DNA from: an uncultured Alphaproteobacteria bacterium
GTDB taxonomy: Bacteria > Pseudomonadota > Alphaproteobacteria > CAAHEQ01 > UBA3637
NCBI GenBank assembly: GCA_947586835.1
Contig: CANPXT010000005.1
Coordinates: 3,327-67,326 of the forward strand
Length of the DNA stretch: 64,000 nt
Direction of reading: 5' to 3'
Shown: positions 1-8,802 of the stretch, one piece after another
Position numbering within the stretch: position 1 is the stretch's first letter
Layout: each line of letters begins with the position of its first letter
Translations under genes and position numbers: made by a program
The notes under the pieces: model-generated
The model's database searches: none
Seen by the model: the letters and a program-made list of their open reading frames with translations, nothing else
What the model was told of the DNA's origin: nothing

Positions 1-642
1 GCTCATGCAATTACTGCACGAACAGGCATAGTTACATATTCTGGTCCACATTTTTCGACTTTTGGAATGGAAAAAGGATTGGAATATACAGTTGATTATT
101 TTAGACGTTGTCTTCTTTTAAAGGAAAAATATGAGATTATTTCTTCCGATACTTTTAGTGATGATCCATGGTACTTAAATCAAAAGAATAGGAAATTTAT
201 TCGTAATTTAGGTTGGAATGTTATTCATGATATTCCTCCAGAGGGGATTCAAGGACAATTATATGGAGGCAATCTAACAGCCTTGACTTCTCTTCAAGGA
301 ACGGCATATTATCCTAAAATAAATCGTTCTATTCTATTTATTGAAGATACAGAGGCTATCAATCCATGCAATTTTGACAGATTATTACAAACACTTCTTA
401 TTCAAAGTAACTTCAAGTCTATCAAAGCGTTATTAATTGGTAGATTTCAACTGAGATCTGGAATGAATGAGAATCTGCTTAAAGAAATAATTCACACAAA
501 AAAGAAGTTGCAAGGAATTCCTGTTATTTCTAATGTTGATTTTGGTCATACAACTCCAATTTGTACTTATCCCATTGGGGGAAAAGTTTCATTAAGTAAA
601 AAAATGGGGAAAATATGTCTAACTATAAAGGAAAGAGAATAA
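1..642 (+). CDS. S66 serine peptidase (LD-carboxypeptidase LdcA / microcin-C immunity MccF family), C-terminal part; 5' end lies outside the window
   Basis: The frame is open from base 1 (AHAITARTGIVTYSGPHFSTFGME...). It is collinear with the full-length paralog at 4225-5211 (AHAITSQTGMVTYSGPHFSSFGML, FSDDPW, LIGRFQ, GHTTPI.TYPIGG). Confidence 0.8.
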   Translation, partial: AHAITARTGIVTYSGPHFSTFGMEKGLEYTVDYFRRCLLLKEKYEIISSDTFSDDPWYLNQKNRKFIRNLGWNVIHDIPPEGIQGQLYGGNLTALTSLQGTAYYPKINRSILFIEDTEAINPCNFDRLLQTLLIQSNFKSIKALLIGRFQLRSGMNENLLKEIIHTKKKLQGIPVISNVDFGHTTPICTYPIGGKVSLSKKMGKICLTIKERE

Positions 643-650
643 GTCATTCC

Positions 651-1247
651 ATGAAATCTTTTGCGGAAAATAAATTTGAAGAAATATTGTTGGAAAAATG
701 CCGATCAGCTTTGTCGCTAAAAAATGATATTTCGCACGATATGGCGCATGCTTTACGAGTTATGAAATTGGCAAAATATATTTCCTTTTTTGAAGGGGGT
801 AATTTAAAAATTATCCTTCCTGCTGCTTTGTTTCATGATATCATCTGTTATCCAAAAGATTCGTTACAGACGAAAAATAGTACTACAGAAAGTGCCATTC
901 TCGCTGAACATATCTTAACTCAAGATAATTTACTTTTACCAACAGAAATTCTCGAGGTCAAAAGAATTATAAGTAATTGTTCGTTCTCTAAAAAAATTCC
1001 TTCCACATGTATAGAGGAGGAGATCGTAAGAGACGCAGATTTATTAGAGGCAAGTGGCGCAGTTTCTATTATGAGAACTTTTGCTTCTGCTGGTATAATG
1101 AATCACCCTTTTTATAACCTAACAGATCCTTTTGCAAGACACAGAGAACCAAACGATAAAAAATTATGCGTTAGATCTATTTTTTACACGTTTATTACAA
1201 GTTCGAAAACACTTAAAAACAATAACCGCCAAACAAATTCTAGATGA
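651..1247 (+). CDS. HD-domain phosphohydrolase (YedJ-like), N-terminal portion; the reading frame is lost at the A6T2 run 1158-1165
   Basis: Contains SHDMAHALRV ... ALFHDI ... RDADLLEASGAVSIMRTFA ... DPFARHREPNDK, the HD/YedJ pattern. An ATG at 651 follows an AAGGAAAGAG RBS. The tail after 1165 (LCVRSIFYTF...) is unlike the family. Confidence 0.7.
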   Translation: MKSFAENKFEEILLEKCRSALSLKNDISHDMAHALRVMKLAKYISFFEGGNLKIILPAALFHDIICYPKDSLQTKNSTTESAILAEHILTQDNLLLPTEILEVKRIISNCSFSKKIPSTCIEEEIVRDADLLEASGAVSIMRTFASAGIMNHPFYNLTDPFARHREPNDKKLCVRSIFYTFITSSKTLKNNNRQTNSR

Positions 1248-2070
1248 ACGTGAAGCTTTTTTGAATTCTTTTTTAAAACAGCTTGAAAAAGAAATTGAAC
1301 CTGAAAATGATCTGTTAGAACAAATCAAAGAAGAGGAAAAAAATTGGAGTAAAATTTTTGAAAAAGAAAAAAACAAGCCCTTTAAAAAATTTTCTTCATT
1401 TTGGTGGAAAAAATATTATTCACAAATAACTAAAACTTTGGGGAAATATATCCATCCGGACGACATTATCTTAGAAGCCGGTTCTGGTTCTGGAAAAGCG
1501 AGTTTTCTTCTCGCACCAAACAACAAAAAAATACTTTTGGACATATCTAAAAATGCCCTAAATTATGCAAAATTTTTAGAAAAACAATTAAATTCAAATA
1601 ATACAGAGTACATTATCGGGAATATTTTTAATATGAAAATAGCAGATGAATCTGTTAATTTTTGTTGGAATGTGGGAGTAATAGAGCACTACTCTCTAGA
1701 ACAAGTGAAACTCATTGTGAAGGAGATGTTACGTGTCACAAAAAATGGTGGCTATGTTGCAATTGGCTATCCTAATTTTTGGTCAGGACCTATTTTAAAA
1801 GCATGGCTTCTAAGTTTTCCTTTGTTTAGTAAGTTTCAGGGTTATAGATTGTCTTCTGAACATTTTTATCAAGACAAGAAATTGAAAAAGATTTGCAAAA
1901 TTGTTGATGACGGGAACAGAATTGAATGGGTTAAGACTATTAAAATAGGCAACCCTTTACCAATGGAAACTCCAAAATTAATATTAAAAATAATTGGCCC
2001 GATTTTAAATTTACTATATTACAACAGATTCTTGACATTTATTTTAATCAAAACCAATAAAAAAGGTTGA
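1132..2070 (+). CDS. Continuation frame: YedJ-like C-terminal helices fused to a class I SAM-dependent methyltransferase
   Basis: NYALDLFFTRLLQVRKHLKT.TAKQILDEREAFLNSFL matches the YedJ C-terminus (E. coli [13 protein letters not shown]...). Downstream, ILEAGSGSGKASFLL is SAM motif I (ExGxGxG), followed by LLDIS, GNIFNM and NGGYVAIG. Confidence 0.7.
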   Translation: MQDTENQTIKNYALDLFFTRLLQVRKHLKTITAKQILDEREAFLNSFLKQLEKEIEPENDLLEQIKEEEKNWSKIFEKEKNKPFKKFSSFWWKKYYSQITKTLGKYIHPDDIILEAGSGSGKASFLLAPNNKKILLDISKNALNYAKFLEKQLNSNNTEYIIGNIFNMKIADESVNFCWNVGVIEHYSLEQVKLIVKEMLRVTKNGGYVAIGYPNFWSGPILKAWLLSFPLFSKFQGYRLSSEHFYQDKKLKKICKIVDDGNRIEWVKTIKIGNPLPMETPKLILKIIGPILNLLYYNRFLTFILIKTNKKG

Positions 2071-2132
2071 CGTTTTCTTCAAATTTTGATATAAACTAGG
2101 TGTTCTTGTAATTCTCAACGTGGAGGATGCTT

Positions 2133-3149
2133 ATGACAACACAGATTCCCGCACCACAGTCTTGGAAAAATCCTGAAAAACATTTAGATATTTTATTACA
2201 AAATCCTTGGTATACAATATTAAATTCATTGTATTCAAGTGTTTTTAAGGCGACCCATCATTTTTATGAAAAAGAAGAAATTGAACCATCCCTGTTCCCA
2301 ATTACAACAGGTTCAATCAGTAGCCCTATAGGTTTGGGGAGTGATTCGTTGCCTATAAAAATACAATTGAATGGCCATGAAATCTATTTAGCTGATTCTA
2401 TGCAATTTTGTTTGGAAATTGGCGATCGTTTAAATAAAAAGGGGGCATACTATATTATGCCAACATTTAGGGGAGAAAAAACGGATGCGCGACATTTAAA
2501 TGAATTCGTTCATTCTGAGGTAGAAATAAAAGGAACTATCGACGACATTATGAACTTGGCTGAACGTTACATTAAATCATTAATTCAGTATCTCTTAGAC
2601 CATAATGCAAATGAAATTGTTGCTGTCGCAGGAACGATAGAGCATCTAAAAAAAGCGTTAATAACCAGCTTTAAAAGGATTTCTTATACAAATGCCCTCA
2701 TTGAATTACAAAATATTCCCAATGCCATAAAAATATTAGATGGTGGTTTGAAAGACATTACTCCTATTGGTGAAAAATATTTGCTAGAAAAATATGGAGA
2801 TTTTACTTGGCTGACGGGAATTCCATGGAAGTTAGTTCCTTTTTATCAAGCTCGTCAACCGGAAAATAACGATATTGCTTTTGCTTCTGATTTGTTAGCG
2901 GGTATTGGTGAAATTTTAGGTTCTGGGCAACGCGTGCTAACCGTTGATGATTTGGATATTTCATTAGCTGAGCATAACGTTGGGCAACAGGAATACTTAT
3001 GGTATAGAAGGATGCGTGAACTAAATACTGTCCAAACGAGTGGGTTCGGTTTAGGAATTGAACGTTTTCTCCTTTGGGTTTTGAAACATAATGACATAAG
3101 GGATTGTACTATTTTATTGAGAGATCATAATCAGATAAGCAGTCCCTAA
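2133..3149 (+). CDS. Class IIb aaRS catalytic-core paralog (AsnRS/AspRS-like) without an anticodon-binding domain
   Basis: Motif 2-like FRGEKTDARHLNEFVHSEVEI. AsnRS-type C-terminus GEILGSGQR ... YLWYRRMRELNTVQTSGFGLGIERFLLWVLKHNDIRD. There is no N-terminal OB fold. GGAGG lies 6 nt before the ATG at 2133. Confidence 0.65.
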   Translation: MTTQIPAPQSWKNPEKHLDILLQNPWYTILNSLYSSVFKATHHFYEKEEIEPSLFPITTGSISSPIGLGSDSLPIKIQLNGHEIYLADSMQFCLEIGDRLNKKGAYYIMPTFRGEKTDARHLNEFVHSEVEIKGTIDDIMNLAERYIKSLIQYLLDHNANEIVAVAGTIEHLKKALITSFKRISYTNALIELQNIPNAIKILDGGLKDITPIGEKYLLEKYGDFTWLTGIPWKLVPFYQARQPENNDIAFASDLLAGIGEILGSGQRVLTVDDLDISLAEHNVGQQEYLWYRRMRELNTVQTSGFGLGIERFLLWVLKHNDIRDCTILLRDHNQISSP

Positions 3150-3166
3150 AGTTTGTGAGGTGTATC

Positions 3167-4228
3167 ATGAAATTGAGTGATATTTCAACTTTTAAAAGGG
3201 AAGAAAGTCATGCATACATGGTTTGTATGATAAACGATTATCTTTCATTTTTTCAGGCCAAGGGATATCAATTACATGAGCCTGTTAAAATTGCTTCCAG
3301 AATAGATCCCACAGTTCAGTTTATTGGCTCTCACATAAGTGTACTAAAACCTTACTTCATGTCTCAGACTCTTCCTGAACCAGGATATGTGATGACACAA
3401 CCATGCGTTCGGACAAGAAATTTAAAAAATTACAACGATGATTCTTTTCTTCCTAACTGGGGATCAATGTTTCATAGCTTGGGGACATTAGCAAAATCTG
3501 CACATTTACAGGATGTAACTGCACAAACTTACAGTCTTTTAACCAATGTTTGGGGCTTAAAACCAGATGATATAAAGGTTCGTATTCAATCAATCGACGG
3601 TGATTTATATGAAATATCGAGTAAAGTTTTCTCTCCTTCTTCATTTGAAATAGATACCAAACCAGGACAGTATTATAGACATAAAGTTGGAATAGATGGT
3701 GTTTGGGGGCGCAATTATAATATTGCCATTAGAGAGGGAAAAACTGAAAATTTCAGTGATATAGGTAATGTTATCATTTTAGAAAATAAAGATACAAAAT
3801 TGGGTATTGAAATTGCTTTGGGTACCTCCACTATTCTTAAAATTAACAAAGGGTTATCTCATGTATTAGATTGCCATCCGCTTTTAGGGTTAGAAAAAAT
3901 TGAGAATCCCGCTCTTAAAATTAAAATGGAAGACTGTATTATAACGTCTATGGCCTTGTACCATGATGGATTGTTGCCTTCAAATGCGCATATTACAAAT
4001 CGTTTAATGAAAAAATACATGGATACATTAGCAAGGTTGTTACCCAAAACAGAGATGTCTATTGATACACTAGCGTGCATTTTGAATCGTTATGAGCATA
4101 GAGAATATGGTCACGCAAAACCTGTTTATGCACAACAAATGGTCTCATATTTAAATAAAACTTCCAAAGGAGCTCCTACTCCAACAATCCCAACAATGGT
4201 CGCGGGAAAAAGTAGAGAGAGATGTTAG
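3167..4228 (+). CDS. Class IIc aaRS catalytic-core paralog (AlaRS N-terminal domain-like) without tRNA-recognition, editing or C-Ala domains
   Basis: YLSFFQAKGYQLHEPVKIASRIDPTVQFIGSHISVLKPYF ... TQPCVRTRN ... FHSLGTLA ... GNVIILEN ... GIEIALGTSTI parallels AlaRS FLDFF..KGH, DPTLLFTNAGMNQFK, QRCVRAGG, FFEMLGNFSFG, IWNLVFMQ and DTGMGLERI. GAGGTG RBS lies before the ATG at 3167. Confidence 0.55.
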   Translation: MKLSDISTFKREESHAYMVCMINDYLSFFQAKGYQLHEPVKIASRIDPTVQFIGSHISVLKPYFMSQTLPEPGYVMTQPCVRTRNLKNYNDDSFLPNWGSMFHSLGTLAKSAHLQDVTAQTYSLLTNVWGLKPDDIKVRIQSIDGDLYEISSKVFSPSSFEIDTKPGQYYRHKVGIDGVWGRNYNIAIREGKTENFSDIGNVIILENKDTKLGIEIALGTSTILKINKGLSHVLDCHPLLGLEKIENPALKIKMEDCIITSMALYHDGLLPSNAHITNRLMKKYMDTLARLLPKTEMSIDTLACILNRYEHREYGHAKPVYAQQMVSYLNKTSKGAPTPTIPTMVAGKSRERC

Positions 4229-5211
4229 TGTTTAAGAACTATTATTATTGGCTCATCTTTTGATACGTCCACCTTAATTTCACCACCTATTGGATAGGTA
4301 ATAATAGGAGTCGTATGGCCTATGTCTAAGTTACCAATGATAGGAAGATGTGACAACTCTTTTTTTGCCACAATTTTTTCCAGCAATTTTCTTGTCATTT
4401 TCGTCTTATCTTGAAAACGTCCAATTAAAATTGCCTTTACGCTAGAAAAATCTTTTTGATGAATCAGTGATTGTAGCATGCGATCAAAAACTTCTGGAGA
4501 AACCTCCTCATCTTCCTCTAAGAACAAAACACTGTTTTCTAATCCAGGCCAAAACTTTGTCCCCTGAAGTGAAGCTATACAACGTACATGCCCTCCAATT
4601 AATTTCCCACTTACAATATCCTCTGATCCATGATTCAAAACCCAAAATGGATCATTTTTTCTGAAATCCCGCTTTTCTTGATCTAAAAACCAAGGATCAT
4701 CACTGAAGGTTGAAGAAGGGGATATTTGATAGGGTGCATCACTTAATAAACATTTTTTAAAATAATCAAAGGTATAATCAAACCCTTTCAGCATACCAAA
4801 ACTTGAAAAATGAGGTCCAGAATACGTTACCATTCCTGTTTGTGAAGTGATAGCATGGGCTAAACAAGTTATATCCGAAAAACCACATAAAATTTTGGGA
4901 TTACTTTTAATTAATTCATAATCCAACTTATCAATCAACTGATTGGTATTGAAACCACCAATTGCTGTTAAAATAGCATCTACGCTCGGATCCCTGAAGG
5001 CTTCATGTATATCATCCAAACGTTGTTGAATAGAAGAGGAACAAAAATCATCCATAACATTCACATTTTTAGAATAAGAAACCGAAATTCCCATTTCTTC
5101 GAATCTATCTTTGGCTATCTTACGACAATCCTCAGAAATGATAGCAAAACTTCTAGCTGGGGCTATAACTCGAATATGAGAACCTTTTGTTAATTTTTTA
5201 GGGTAAATCAT
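4225..5211 (-). CDS. S66 serine peptidase (LdcA / MccF family), full length
   Basis: 328 aa. Contains IRVIAPA, the GFSDITCL nucleophile motif and the DIGHTTP His motif. It converges on the AlaRS-like gene with a 4-nt overlap. Confidence 0.8.
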   Translation of the reverse strand: MIYPKKLTKGSHIRVIAPARSFAIISEDCRKIAKDRFEEMGISVSYSKNVNVMDDFCSSSIQQRLDDIHEAFRDPSVDAILTAIGGFNTNQLIDKLDYELIKSNPKILCGFSDITCLAHAITSQTGMVTYSGPHFSSFGMLKGFDYTFDYFKKCLLSDAPYQISPSSTFSDDPWFLDQEKRDFRKNDPFWVLNHGSEDIVSGKLIGGHVRCIASLQGTKFWPGLENSVLFLEEDEEVSPEVFDRMLQSLIHQKDFSSVKAILIGRFQDKTKMTRKLLEKIVAKKELSHLPIIGNLDIGHTTPIITYPIGGEIKVDVSKDEPIIIVLKH

Positions 5212-5283
5212 TTTCTCTCCTTAGGTTATTTTATCATGATTGTAGTATACACATTGTTTTTAAAAAGTCAACCATAAAACCAC

Positions 5284-5312
5284 TTGACTTTTGTCAAGTT
5301 TTATGGTAATAT
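5284..5312 (+). promoter_or_regulatory. Sigma70-like promoter for glyQS (TTGACT-17-TAATAT) embedded in a 37-nt nested inverted repeat (5271-5307)
   Basis: -35 at 5284-5289, -10 at 5307-5312. ACCATAAAAC (5271-5280) pairs with GTTTTATGGT (5298-5307). The inner palindrome is CTTGAC-TTTT-GTCAAG. Confidence 0.45.
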
Positions 5313-5342
5313 AACAACATTTCAATCAACGAAGGAGGTATC

Positions 5343-6773
5343 ATGGCTGTTCGTACTATGGAAGAATTGGTTTCTTTATGCAAGAAACGTGGTTTTGTTT
5401 TTCAATCATCTGAAATCTATGGTGGTTTAAGAGGGGTATATGATTTAGGTCCTCTTGGAGTAGAATTAAAGAAAAATATCCGAAATGCTTGGTGGCGAAG
5501 TTTGGTATATGAACGGGATGATATTGAAGGGGTGGAATGTTCACACTTATCACACAGATTAGTATGGAAACATTCTGGTCACGAGGATACTTTTTCTGAT
5601 CCTTTGATTGAATGTAAAACATGTCACTCTCGTATGAGACAAGACAAAATGAAAGATGAAACGAAATGTGATACTTGTGGTTCATCCGATTTAACAGATC
5701 CTAAAAAATTCTTATTAATGATGAAAACTAATATTGGGCCTGTGGATGATGGAAGTAGTTTTGCTTACTTACGTCCAGAAACAGCTCAAGGGAGTTATTT
5801 AAATTTTGAAAATGTTTTGCTTTCTATGGGGAGAAAACTTCCTTTTGGAATAGCTCAACATGGTAAATCTTTTCGCAATGAAATTACCCCGAAAAACTTT
5901 TTATTTCGACTAAGGGAATTTGAACAAGCAGAAATGCAATTTTTCGTTCCTCCTGAAACCGATATTGAATGGTGGGAAAAATGGAAAAATATTCGCCATC
6001 AATGGTGGCTTGAGCAGGGAATTCCTGCAGGAAAACTACGCTTTAAGGATCACGAACAACTTGCTCATTACGCGAAGTGTGCGACAGATATTGAATACGA
6101 ATTTCCGTGGGGGTTTGATGAAATTGAAGGAATTCATGATCGACAGGACTTTGACCTCGGTTCTCATACAAAATCTCAAGAAGATTTTAAAATCAACGCA
6201 AAAGTTCTGCCTAATAAAGATTCTACCACACGAATGTCTTATAGAGATCCGTTTACAGGGAAAGAATTCATTCCTTTTGTCATTGAAACTGCAGCAGGTT
6301 TGGATAGAGCCATGATTGCCTTGATCAATGAGGCTTATACAGAAGAAAAATTACCAAACGGAAAAACTCGTACAGTTTTGAAATTAAAGAAGCATCTCGC
6401 TCCTATCAAAGTTGCAGTTGTACCTCTGGCAAAAAATAATCCAGATATTATGATGACAGGTATGAAAGTTCGCCGTGTTTTAAGTGAACTTGGCATAGGT
6501 CGGGTTGTTTTTGAAAATAGTAATAACATAGGGAAAGCTTACAGAAGACATGATGAGATAGGCACTCCTATTTGTGTCACTGTCGATTTTGATACGTTGG
6601 AAAAAGAAAACCACCCAGTAACGGTTAGAGATCGGGATACAATGGAACAGGTTAGTGTTAATATTGCAGATATCGGAAAATATGTTAAAAAATTCTATTC
6701 TAGAGAAACACCTCAACAAGATGTTGAACGTTTATACCAATTTTCAAAAATGAAAGAAAAAGGAAGAGAATAA
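5343..6773 (+). CDS. glyQS: Glycyl-tRNA synthetase, homodimeric (alpha2, GlyQS) type
   Basis: MEELVSLCKKRGFVFQSSEIYGGLRGVYDLGPLGVELKKNIRNAWW. CxxC...CxxC insertion. RPETAQG, FRNEITP, REFEQAEMQFF, and a C-terminal anticodon-binding domain. GGAGG RBS. Confidence 0.9.
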   Translation: MAVRTMEELVSLCKKRGFVFQSSEIYGGLRGVYDLGPLGVELKKNIRNAWWRSLVYERDDIEGVECSHLSHRLVWKHSGHEDTFSDPLIECKTCHSRMRQDKMKDETKCDTCGSSDLTDPKKFLLMMKTNIGPVDDGSSFAYLRPETAQGSYLNFENVLLSMGRKLPFGIAQHGKSFRNEITPKNFLFRLREFEQAEMQFFVPPETDIEWWEKWKNIRHQWWLEQGIPAGKLRFKDHEQLAHYAKCATDIEYEFPWGFDEIEGIHDRQDFDLGSHTKSQEDFKINAKVLPNKDSTTRMSYRDPFTGKEFIPFVIETAAGLDRAMIALINEAYTEEKLPNGKTRTVLKLKKHLAPIKVAVVPLAKNNPDIMMTGMKVRRVLSELGIGRVVFENSNNIGKAYRRHDEIGTPICVTVDFDTLEKENHPVTVRDRDTMEQVSVNIADIGKYVKKFYSRETPQQDVERLYQFSKMKEKGRE

Positions 6774-6810
6774 TTTCGTTTCAATATACTCAATCCTTTA
6801 AGCAATTAAA

Positions 6811-7008
6811 AAGTGTAAAACGCTATCCGCGACCTCTCAGGAGATTTTGGCTTTGTTTGCAGAGAATTCACAGCTAGACATTGCGACCATTGTTCAAAAA
6901 ACTGGAAAGAATCGAGAAACTGTCCGCAAAGCGGTTCAGAGCCTTGTTAAAAAAGGATACCTAAACAAAATCGGCTCTACCAGAGGTGTGGTATATTTAC
7001 TATCTTAA
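6811..7008 (+). pseudogene. Remnant of a winged-helix DNA-binding protein (C-terminal about 65 codons, no start codon)
   Basis: The stop-to-stop frame reads ...ATSQEILALFAENSQLDIATIVQKTGKNRETVRKAVQSLVKKGYLNKIGSTRGVVYLLS*. There is no upstream ATG or RBS. Confidence 0.35.
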
Positions 7009-7027
7009 ATTTTTTCAAAAAGAAAGT

Positions 7028-7129
7028 TCAACTTGGGGGGGGGCGGTTTTTACCTTTTTTCTTATTTTTCAATACGGTTAAGAGTGTTGGCAAGATGATT
7101 TGTGCTAAGAGTTTAAGTTGTTTTTCCAT
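7028..7129 (-). CDS. Small 33-aa ORF, hydrophobic helix plus basic tail (type I toxin-like), carrying a C9 tract near its 3' end
   Basis: AAAGGAGAACAC-ATG. The peptide is MEKQLKLLAQIILPTLLTVLKNKKKGKNRPPPS. Hand-translated, and shorter than the ORF-track cutoff. Confidence 0.3.
   Translation of the reverse strand: MEKQLKLLAQIILPTLLTVLKNKKKGKNRPPPS
7035..7043. repeat. G9 (C9 on the minus strand) homopolymer tract
   Basis: Read directly from acttGGGGGGGGGcgg. Confidence 0.9.
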
Positions 7130-7317
7130 GTGTTCTCCTTTCAGTTGAGGGCATCACCATATATGCTCTTATTGACAGATTTATCAACTTATATTTTGAA
7201 AAGGCGCATTTTTGACGATAACCAACACTATTTTTACATACAAGTCATTTGCAAAATACCCCAAAAGCAAAGGACAAATGCCTACTTTTCGTTCAAAAAT
7301 CAAGTAACACCACCAAT

Positions 7318-7348
7318 AAAAAGAGAGTTTTAAAAGCTCTCTTTTTTT
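7318..7348. terminator. Bidirectional rho-independent terminator-like hairpin
   Basis: AAAAAGAGAG-ttttaaaag-CTCTCTTTTTTT. Confidence 0.4.
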
Positions 7349-7532
7349 GATATTCGACACTTTTTCCGTTTTCTTATTTCTTAAAGCATTTTTTTTCAAA
7401 ATTTATGAAAAAATCAAAAATATGCACCGTTTAATATATTTTATCACTTTATGAAGTTCTCAATCTTCAAAAGCTGAAATATTGAGTACCTTGAACAGCT
7501 GAAAAAAAATAACAAATATACCCCCGGGAGTC

Positions 7533-7787
7533 TTATTTTTCAGATAAAGCAAAATCAATGGCGCGTGCCAACTGATCAGCGCAGGAAGTGCCTTTTCCGC
7601 GGCAATCATTATGCCTTAAAATATCGGCAATTTCACGTGCATTTTTTCCTTCCGCCAGTTTGGAAAGAGCTTGTAAATTACCCGGACATCCGCCGATAAA
7701 ACAAATATTGTGAATCATATTATCTTCAATATCAAAACTAATTTGTTTTGAGCAAACACCTTGGGGTTCATATGTAAAATGCGCCAT
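7533..7787 (-). CDS. TSCPD-domain protein (TIGR03905-like small protein)
   Basis: GVCSKQISFDIED..I.N..F.GGCPGNLQA...L..G........L....C..KGTSCADQLARAI. Confidence 0.7.
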   Translation of the reverse strand: MAHFTYEPQGVCSKQISFDIEDNMIHNICFIGGCPGNLQALSKLAEGKNAREIADILRHNDCRGKGTSCADQLARAIDFALSEK

Positions 7788-7989
7788 TAAAATCTCCTTT
7801 TCAATTATAGAATAATCGTAAGATAAATTTTTAAAAAAATCAAGAAAGTTTTTTTCTTTGCTTGCAATTTTAAAACAAATAATATACTTTAAATGTATGC
7901 TAATAAAAAAAGTGTGTTTTCAAATACTCGTTATATTACTTTTTTTGTCATCACCGCCGTTATCAGCCCAAGAAACGAAAGGAAATTCC

Positions 7990-8802
7990 ATGCCGTACGT
8001 TACTCTTAACAATTCAAAACAAATGCCCGTTCTGGGATTAGGTACATGGACTTTTGATGATGATTTAGCCGCCCGAAGTGTTTATACGGCTTTAAAAAAC
8101 GGCTATCGCCTTATTGATACCGCCCGTTATTACGGCAATGAAACAGGTGTGGGAATCGGTGTTCGAAAAGCTATCGACGAAGGCATTTGCAAACGGGAAG
8201 ATGTGTTTATTACCACCAAAATCACACCGTTTTCTTTTGAAAACTATGATGCGCTTATTTCAGAAGCCGACAAAAAGCTGGGGTTGGGCTATATTGACTT
8301 AATGCTGATTCATCAACAAGGACAGGGAGATAAAGAACTTTATCGCGCCATTGAACGCGCCGTTCAAAAAGGGATTGTTAAAACGCTCGGCATTTCAAAT
8401 TTTTATACTTTGACCGATTATGAACGCATTACAAAAGAAGCTGATATTTTGCCGGCAGTTATTCAAAACGAAAATCATTTATATTATCAAAACACGGCAC
8501 TGCAACAAGCGCTTCAAAAAGACGGCGTAATTATTGAATCTTATTATCCCTTGGGCGGCAGAGAACACAATAAAGCATTGCTACAAAATGAAGTTGTTGA
8601 AAGGTTGGCAAAAAAATATCAAAAATCAGCGGCACAAATTATTTTAAGATGGCACATTCAAGCCGGTTATATTGCAATTCCGGGCGCCTCAAACCCCGAT
8701 TATATTGCAGAAAACATCAACATTTTCGATTTTCGTTTAACCGATGATGAAATGAAACAATTAGCTGATTTAAACACGGGGAAAAGATATGAAAACTGGT
8801 AA
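7990..8802 (+). CDS. Aldo/keto reductase (2,5-diketo-D-gluconate reductase-like)
   Basis: MPYVTLNNSKQMPVLGLGTW, GYRLIDTARYYGNE, DLMLIHQ, IGISNF, NQNENH, IPGASN. AAGGA RBS lies before the ATG at 7990. The ORF track extends upstream to a TTG at 7858. Confidence 0.85.
   Translation: MPYVTLNNSKQMPVLGLGTWTFDDDLAARSVYTALKNGYRLIDTARYYGNETGVGIGVRKAIDEGICKREDVFITTKITPFSFENYDALISEADKKLGLGYIDLMLIHQQGQGDKELYRAIERAVQKGIVKTLGISNFYTLTDYERITKEADILPAVIQNENHLYYQNTALQQALQKDGVIIESYYPLGGREHNKALLQNEVVERLAKKYQKSAAQIILRWHIQAGYIAIPGASNPDYIAENINIFDFRLTDDEMKQLADLNTGKRYENW

Follow-up and report, generated by a model that had tools for sequence, protein, structure and literature searches.

Among leads against tRNA synthetases, the natural mimics of aminoacyl-adenylates (microcin C, agrocin 84, albomycin and ascamycin) are the best validated, and very few of the pathways behind them are known. 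Here we describe a seven-gene island in the genome of an uncultured alphaproteobacterium (GenBank assembly GCA_947586835.1), situated at the start of a 64,000-nucleotide (nt) stretch of contig CANPXT010000005.1 (hereafter C5; positions 3,327 to 67,326 of the forward strand), which is referred to as the window. Two adjacent genes of the island, encoding an AsnRS-like and an AlaRS-like protein, had been singled out in an earlier, original prediction made from the sequence alone. It appears reasonably probable to us that the island directs the biosynthesis of, and immunity to, an uncharacterized aminoacyl-nucleotide that mimics an aminoacyl-adenylate, most likely the glycyl one, a chemistry that we infer.

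Two described systems are relevant to this reading. According to the annotation of plasmid pAgK84, the agn cluster for agrocin 84 contains agnA, followed by genes for an S-adenosylmethionine (SAM)-dependent methyltransferase (MTase), the resistant LeuRS AgnB2 and the ProRS-like AgnC1 and, further on, the "MccF-like protein" AgnC5 and a radical SAM enzyme. A duplicated target synthetase within the cluster is the immunity logic of both agrocin 84 (AgnB2) and albomycin (PMC8323819). The ascamycin pathway depends on AcmF, a truncated AlaRS-like protein of 370 amino acids (aa) that carries the substitution D232E and has lost the residues for activation of ATP and alanine. AcmF takes Ala (or Gly or Ser) from aminoacyl-tRNA and attaches it to the sulfamate nitrogen of a nucleoside that occupies the former adenylate site; its Glu232 is essential. 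The Ala-tRNA is supplied by the cluster AlaRS AcmD, the logic of the pair being that a dedicated synthetase feeds a tRNA-dependent transferase, and the hydrolase AcmE is found between AcmD and AcmF.

The island shares with the agrocin 84 system of Rhizobium rhizogenes K84 an AgnA-type enzyme, a SAM-MTase, an MccF-like S66 peptidase and an extra aminoacyl-tRNA synthetase (aaRS), and a further truncated aaRS-like protein of class II is encoded in both, which is ProRS-like in agrocin 84 (AgnC1) and AlaRS-derived in the island. The spare synthetase is a LeuRS in agrocin 84, whereas it is a glycyl-tRNA synthetase (GlyRS) in the island, which also lacks the agrocin 84 genes for pentanamide, opine and 3'-deoxy-arabinose tailoring (agnC2-C7, D, E). 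Both the island and the ascamycin system (Streptomyces sp. 80H647 / JCM9888) place a full aaRS and an aminoacyl-removing hydrolase beside the AlaRS-like protein; however, these are an AlaRS and an alpha/beta-hydrolase in ascamycin and a GlyRS and an S66 serine peptidase in the island. Unlike the microcin C system, the island is devoid of peptide adenylation of the MccA/MccB type. All of the parts are of known kinds (AgnA, AcmF-like, MccF-like and resistance-type aaRS). A literature search for the AlaRS-like/MccF/GlyRS combination, or for a GlyRS-directed member, yielded the AcmF papers and the Trojan-horse review and nothing else.

Two synthetase-like proteins without canonical tRNA-reading domains

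The accessory island spans positions 1-6773 of the window plus 366 nt upstream and comprises seven genes in the order S66 peptidase, HD phosphohydrolase, SAM-MTase, AgnA-like, AlaRS-like, S66 peptidase and GlyRS. The five genes from the first S66 gene to the AlaRS-like gene are on one strand and are followed by the convergent second S66 gene and then by the divergent GlyRS gene. Sequence profiles and structure models agreed with the original prediction that the AsnRS-like and AlaRS-like proteins each consist of a class II core by itself and lack the domains with which tRNA is canonically read, and the results described below support its view that both belong to non-translational chemistry.

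The open reading frame (ORF) of the AsnRS-like protein covers positions 2127-3149 (+ strand; 340 aa), and the called gene starts from the second ATG at position 2133 (2133-3149, 338 aa, the same length as P0081). Its translation contains motif 2 (FRGEKTDARHLNEF) and the motif 3 region (GFGLGIERFLLW...IRD), as had been reported. The protein matched PF00152 with 112 bits, and its best NCBIfam model was the AsnA-type NF005055, with a score of 224.4 bits that stays below the cut-off of 389. The first residue corresponds to position ~137 of the 451 positions of the AsnRS profile, and no match to the OB anticodon domain (PF01336) was found in the protein. Among solved structures, AsnRS cores come closest to it (1x54, E value of 8e-27), with AsnA of P. 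abyssi (PDB 3p8t) giving a weak match (E value of 1.7e-4), and the AlphaFold model (predicted local distance difference test [pLDDT] score of 90.2) retrieved AsnRS of P. horikoshii, 1x54, as the top match at a template modeling (TM) score of 0.86. The archaeal asparagine synthetase A (AS-AR, 3p8t) is also an AsnRS core without the anticodon domain; however, the window protein is much closer to AsnRS cores and AgnA.

A homologue search for this protein yielded 618 matches. The adenylation residues R115, E117, H123, E131, E133, D255, E262, R269 and G306-R313 (counted from the ATG at 2127) were found conserved across 29 homologues linked to cassettes; a wider alignment of 32 sequences, in which numbering starts from the ATG at 2133, shows no variation at these residues, so that the motif-2 Arg, the motif-3 Arg and the Mg/ATP acids are all kept. 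When plasmids were searched by tblastn, agnA of pAgK84, annotated as "Agrocin84-synthetase", aligned with 43.2% identity over 99% coverage (E value of 2e-85). Judged by sequence, the protein is a full-length AgnA homologue with a complete predicted adenylation site, and the earlier proposal of an adenylating or ligating enzyme that acts on a non-tRNA acceptor fits it, given that all adenylation residues are present. On plasmids of Pantoea agglomerans, AgnA-like coding sequence (~43% identity) was observed under genes annotated as "GNAT family N-acetyltransferase", which suggests either an AgnA-GNAT fusion or mis-annotation.

The AlaRS-like protein is encoded by an ORF at positions 3155-4228 (+ strand) and, when read from the ATG at 3167 (3167-4228), comprises 353 aa, the same length as P0001; the motifs FFQAKGY, DPTVQFIGSHISVLKPYF, PCVRTRN and GIEIALGTSTI, quoted in the original prediction, are all present in its translation. 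PF01411 matched only residues 27-159, with 35.9 bits (cut-off of 30.3), and sequence similarity to AlaRS is confined to residues ~24-160. The family profile matched AlaRS in the PDB with an E value of 1.7e-7, the top PDB matches of the structure model (pLDDT of 92.5) in Foldseek were AlaRS catalytic fragments with TM scores of 0.69-0.74 over ~360 columns, and the profile-profile alignment spans AlaRS from residue 1 to ~380. The statement that the protein ends shortly after the first 250 or so residues of AlaRS was therefore wrong. Four helices (residues 252-337) match the tRNA-recognition domain, roughly two-thirds of which is kept, and neither the editing domain nor the C-Ala domain is found in the protein. 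A full AlaRS (895-aa frame) is encoded elsewhere in the genome.

Residue conservation was examined in an alignment of 33 members of the AlaRS-like family. The motif-2 Arg (R86), the aromatic F106 at the adenine-stacking position and N205, the equivalent of AlaRS Asn212, are invariant. By contrast, the AlaRS signature D-T-G-x-G-L-E-R reads E-I-A-L-G-T-S-T in this family, with an invariant Glu (E219) in place of AlaRS Asp235, Ala in place of Gly237 and a nearly invariant Thr (T226) replacing the motif-3 Arg, which holds the gamma-phosphate of ATP. Motif 3 was read here by an ungapped comparison of IE-IALG-TST with ID-TGxG-LER, in agreement with where the model passes from strand to helix; the global hhalign alignment had a gap within motif 3 and was not used there. 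According to its published description, AcmF resembles the AlaRS-like protein in length (~350-370 aa for the two), in holding only aminoacylation and tRNA-recognition parts, in the loss of the ATP residues and in the Asp-to-Glu exchange. Because the loss of the motif-3 Arg and the replacement of Asp235 by Glu match published AcmF, the AlaRS-like protein is probably not an adenylating enzyme, contrary to what had been predicted. With part of the tRNA-recognition domain retained, and by analogy with AcmF, it more likely uses tRNA as the aminoacyl donor. At 50% identity and an E value of ≤1e-30, the family comprises 309 clusters, which are called "hypothetical" if they are named at all; ten long members that were looked up had no informative name.

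Candidate identities of the two proteins as EpmA, HisZ or BirA were ruled out, and the profiles of EpmA, LysRS and PheRS scored weakly. Their status as fragments or pseudogenes was ruled out as well, because both short forms constitute conserved families.

A recurrent module with MccF-type peptidases and an extra GlyRS

We collected 48 loci with an AlaRS-like gene and classified the genes within 7 kb of it. The hosts comprise Alpha- and Gammaproteobacteria, many Patescibacteria, Bacillota, Bacteroidota, Actinomycetota and Bdellovibrionota, as well as a Calothrix plasmid. An S66 peptidase gene accompanies the AlaRS-like gene at 40 of the loci and an AgnA-like gene at 31, and the side-by-side position of the two synthetase-like genes, which had been regarded as unusual, thus represents a conserved design. 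A class I MTase is encoded at most loci and adjoins the AlaRS-like gene in most loci of class A. The variable partners are nucleotide enzymes, namely HD proteins, a dCTP-deaminase-like pair, a phosphoribosylglycinamide synthetase (GARS)-like ATP-grasp enzyme or a set consisting of a 270-aa HIT protein, a P-loop kinase and a radical SAM enzyme, and the cassettes of classes B and C contain viperin-like radical SAM and dCTP-deaminase-like genes. Several loci also encode ABC exporters and histidine kinases. Two natural gene fusions, of AlaRS-like and S66 parts (692 aa) in a Parcubacteria metagenome-assembled genome (MAG; L046:5245-7323) and of MTase and S66 parts (607 aa) in a Catabacter MAG (L064), support functional coupling of the parts. 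The GARS-like ATP-grasp gene, which specifies a glycine-handling fold, follows the AlaRS-like and S66 genes at two Bacteroidota loci (L001:12037-13332 and L067).

The second S66 gene of the island (4225-5211, - strand) converges on the AlaRS-like gene with a 4-nt overlap, and its product contains the Ser/His/Glu motifs. The best PDB match was BA_5613 of B. anthracis, described as "MccF-like" (E value of 4e-102), to which, as well as to Listeria Lmo1638 (E values of about 1e-100), the protein is ~55% identical as counted by eye from the alignment. MccF structures were matched with E values of 2e-40 to 5e-32 in one stretch (residues 3-318 with MccF of B. anthracis, 41-317 with that of E. coli) that includes the inter-domain insert, whereas LdcA murein carboxypeptidases were matched at 1e-18 in two stretches (13-140 and 199-313). 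The protein is also 27.7% identical to the MccF-like AgnC5 (E value of 8e-33). On these sequence comparisons, the flanking S66 peptidases are assigned to the MccF clade and not to the LdcA clade.

The last gene of the island (5343-6773, + strand) encodes a divergent GlyRS of the dimeric type (NF003211, 547 bits), which is an additional copy. A dimeric-type GlyRS is unusual for Alphaproteobacteria. No glyQ was found in the genome, and the small-genome family to which it belongs uses the dimeric type. The second intact GlyRS of the genome, encoded on contig C1, is 56% identical to the window copy, and each of 24 relatives from the same family has only one GlyRS, which shares 56-60% identity with the window copy (70% in one case). 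In the GlyRS tree, the window copy forms a long branch of 0.43, as opposed to ~0.05-0.12.

Twelve of the 48 loci have a GlyRS adjoining the AlaRS-like gene. Eight of these are of the dimeric type (the window, three Patescibacteria and four Bacillota), and four encode the unrelated glyQ/glyS-type enzyme (Humibacillus, Arthrobacter, Dysgonomonas and a Bdellovibrionales MAG). All twelve genomes have the cassette GlyRS in addition to another one, each containing at least two GlyRS genes: the four genomes with a glyQS cassette also encode a normal dimeric GlyRS elsewhere, and the cassette genomes of Patescibacteria and Bacillota, only 0.6-1.5 Mb in size, contain two or three GlyRS genes. A single GlyRS was counted in each of three genomes whose cassette has no GlyRS beside it. 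As a control, ValRS, AspRS and LysRS (L002) and IleRS (L030) genes near two cassettes proved to be the sole housekeeping copies and were therefore not counted as resistance genes. The cassette GlyRS copies cluster with their own phylum in the tree, which argues for repeated independent local recruitment and not for co-transfer. By analogy with the described clusters, the window GlyRS is a candidate for a resistant target, a supplier of Gly-tRNA or both, since both roles fit.

The cassette is mobile and accessory. The AgnA-like gene is absent from all of the 24 relatives (24/24), and none of 20 congeners has the AlaRS-like gene, save for a 55-aa remnant of its C terminus in one genome, G005 (L016:1525-2761, contig C17). 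This remnant adjoins an intact S66 gene whose product is 88% identical to that of the window, and the locus therefore looks like orphan immunity, left behind as the producer decayed. A gene for an MsbA-like ABC exporter is located directly upstream of the G005 remnant locus.

Proposed product and competing explanations

According to our proposal, the AgnA-like enzyme would spend ATP and build a nucleotide-amino-acid link of the N-acyl phosphoramidate type, or its amine or amide precursor. The AlaRS-like enzyme would hold a nucleoside or nucleotide in its old ATP site and, as AcmF does, move a small aminoacyl group, presumably Gly, from aminoacyl-tRNA to an amine. The cassette GlyRS would charge the donor tRNA, be insensitive to the product, or both, the HD hydrolase and the SAM-MTase would tailor the phosphate or nucleoside, and the two S66 peptidases would cleave the aminoacyl-nucleotide bond inside the producer, which would provide self-immunity. 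The two aaRS-like steps could proceed in either order: Gly-tRNA might react with a nucleoside phosphoramidate, or it might react with ammonia to give glycinamide that is then N-adenylylated, and both orders would lead to the same product class. At positions 235 and 237, the exchanges to Glu and Ala would narrow the pocket; these exchanges, the link to GlyRS and the GARS-like partner in Bacteroidota together point to glycine. More specifically, but only tentatively, we suggest a glycyl-adenylate mimic made by an undescribed route, in which the AlaRS-derived enzyme takes Gly from Gly-tRNA and the AgnA-type enzyme adds the N-P link.

Several observations weigh against this proposal. The nearest relatives of the AlaRS-like protein (54-65% identity) are encoded in HIT/kinase/radical SAM cassettes without an AgnA-like gene, which implies that the two aaRS-like proteins are not obligate partners and that the cassette is mosaic, and only about a quarter of the loci hold a GlyRS. 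That AgnA joins an amide precursor to AMP via a phosphoramide bond is itself a proposal (PMC8323819), and the AlaRS-like protein was likened to AcmF by the published description of AcmF and not by direct sequence alignment. AcmF carries the exchange N219Q, whereas the Asn is kept in the AlaRS-like family (N205), and BLASTP detected no similarity of the window MTase to AgnB1. As the island contains no sulfamate-pathway genes, the acceptor cannot be the one used for ascamycin. Finally, no intact exporter is encoded in the island, where only a weak fragment of a major facilitator superfamily (MFS) transporter was seen upstream, and the frameshift in the HD gene (see below) indicates that the island copy may be partly decayed.

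The missing exporter would be expected if the island conferred resistance only, that is, if S66 peptidases, a spare GlyRS and aaRS-like proteins that modify or sequester the toxin countered an aminoacyl-nucleotide released by neighbors and nothing were produced. It is common for an MccF homologue to occur by itself as a resistance gene (PMC8323819), and the relative G005 keeps only its S66 gene. However, no adenylation residue is missing from the AgnA-like enzyme, which is a homologue of a biosynthetic enzyme, the MTase and varied nucleotide-tailoring enzymes co-vary with the cassette, exporters are found at other loci, and a conserved operon of five to seven genes exceeds known immunity needs; resistance without production is therefore unlikely. 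We are similarly doubtful, and slightly more so, about a nucleotide-based defense or signaling system, for example against phages, in which a modified or aminoacylated nucleotide would be used inside the cell. Some loci do lie in surroundings that resemble defense islands, with CBASS E2, Fic, AbiEii and restriction genes, and the viperin-like radical SAM and dCTP-deaminase-like genes of the class B and C cassettes are compatible with such a role. Nevertheless, PADLOC returned no match for the AlaRS-like, AgnA-like, S66 and HD proteins, several loci encode ABC exporters, and a duplicated target-type aaRS together with MccF-type hydrolases is a hallmark of producers of aaRS inhibitors (PMC8323819).

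The remaining two readings assign the genes to the general physiology of the cell. Since S66 includes the LdcA family and UDP-MurNAc-peptide is a nucleotide substrate, the genes might serve the cell envelope, with the AlaRS-like protein adding Gly or Ala to a peptidoglycan precursor, the AsnRS-like protein amidating it or adding Asp or Asn, and the S66 proteins acting as LD-carboxypeptidases on stem peptides. Fem/MurM enzymes use Gly-tRNA and Ala-tRNA for peptidoglycan cross-bridges, which lends this scheme a precedent. Yet the S66 protein is far closer to MccF-type structures (1e-102 and 1e-40) than to LdcA (1e-18), the partners are nucleotide enzymes (HD, HIT, dCTP-deaminase-like, kinase) and not mur or fem genes, and the cassette occurs sporadically in Gram-negative bacteria, in bacteria of the candidate phyla radiation (CPR) and on plasmids while being absent from close relatives. 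With the AgnA homology pointing to antibiotic synthesis as well, we find a cell-envelope pathway very improbable. The top NCBIfam match of the 338-aa protein, "asparagine synthetase A", and the fact that no AsnRS was seen in the genome could mean that an archaeal-type asparagine synthetase A supplies Asn and that its neighbors are unrelated. The score of 224 against a cut-off of 389, AgnA as the closest named homologue, the absence of the gene from all 24 relatives and its tight link to AlaRS-like, S66 and MTase genes at 31 loci all speak against ordinary metabolism, the least probable of the readings considered.

The findings that are new here are the AgnA homology, the counts for the pairing of AgnA-like and AlaRS-like genes, the extra-copy rule that extends over both types of GlyRS and the relative with orphan immunity. 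The cassette joins parts of the AgnA and AcmF pathways, its candidate resistance gene points to the target, and with 5-7 genes it is small enough to be expressed and reconstituted. No natural pathway that targets GlyRS was found in the literature searched, and we know of no earlier natural aminoacyl-nucleotide inhibitor of this enzyme. If the tentatively suggested biosynthesis of a glycyl-adenylate mimic is correct, its product would be the first one known to us. The cassette would then also represent a minimal, portable and tRNA-dependent route to warheads of the microcin C/agrocin type, widespread in CPR and other uncultured bacteria, and reduced-genome symbionts and CPR bacteria would bear chemical weapons made from recycled translation enzymes. 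Furthermore, functions could be assigned to a family mislabelled as "asparagine synthetase A" or "asparaginase" and to the unannotated AlaRS-like family with its more than 300 sequence clusters.

Other genes of the island and related clusters

The first S66 (MccF-like) gene is present in the window with its 3' two-thirds (1-642, + strand; PF17676, 99.6 bits) and starts at C5:2961, 366 nt 5' of the window; the two S66 proteins of the island share 53% identity. The next gene encodes an HD phosphohydrolase of the YedJ/PRK10119-like type (615-1247, + strand; PF01966), which aligns to positions 18-185 of the NF007515 profile. In the following frame (1132-2070, + strand), a displaced HD C terminus of ~50 aa precedes the class I SAM-MTase (PF13847, PF08241 and PF13649). 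Comparison with intact homologues showed that the HD gene leaves its frame at GATAAAAAATTATG, an A-run at ~1157-1165; positions 167-219 of NF007515 match residues 10-62 of the 1132-2070 frame, and the last ~50 HD residues (region 1132-1320) read on into the methyltransferase with no stop between. Elsewhere, the HD and MTase genes are separate and overlapping, and the change of frame could be either a genuine frameshift with fusion or an assembly error.

No Rfam element such as a T-box or riboswitch was detected within positions 1-8000 of the window, and a scan for promoters and terminators gave results at chance level. The cassettes contain no dedicated tRNA gene, and the tRNAs near some loci share no consistent identity. 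The island is more AT-rich than the DNA beyond 7 kb and starts ~770 bp after a gene for tRNA-Ala(GGC). The upstream region of the contig (C5:1396-2892) encodes a RimL/MccE-type GNAT protein (199 aa), this tRNA-Ala(GGC) at 2117-2192 and the weak MFS fragment of 184 aa. It is possible that the tRNA gene marks the island boundary and that the fragment is a decayed exporter.

A second, distant cassette is present in the same 1.3-Mb genome on contig C4 (97890-102978; L028:5890-10978). It encodes an AgnB1-like MTase, two dCTP-deaminase-like proteins, an AlaRS-like protein (360 aa, with the motif FGFGIETF), an S66 peptidase and a radical SAM enzyme, and it adjoins two serine recombinase genes and a helicase-like gene of 905 aa. 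S66 genes of the C4 type are present in about 10 congeners. Among the other loci, that of Draconibacterium sits amid CBASS-E2, Fic, DUF2326 and transposase genes. The megaplasmid of Xenorhabdus bovienii CS03 (L085:8941-19005) carries a cluster that resembles the one for agrocin 84 and lacks an AlaRS-like gene; it encodes an AgnA-like protein, an MTase, an S66 peptidase, a nucleoside phosphorylase, two VOC proteins, a LeuRS, a class IIa aaRS-related protein and an MFS transporter. A cluster for a cyclophane RiPP (a peptide made by the ribosome and modified after its translation) adjoins this Xenorhabdus cluster.

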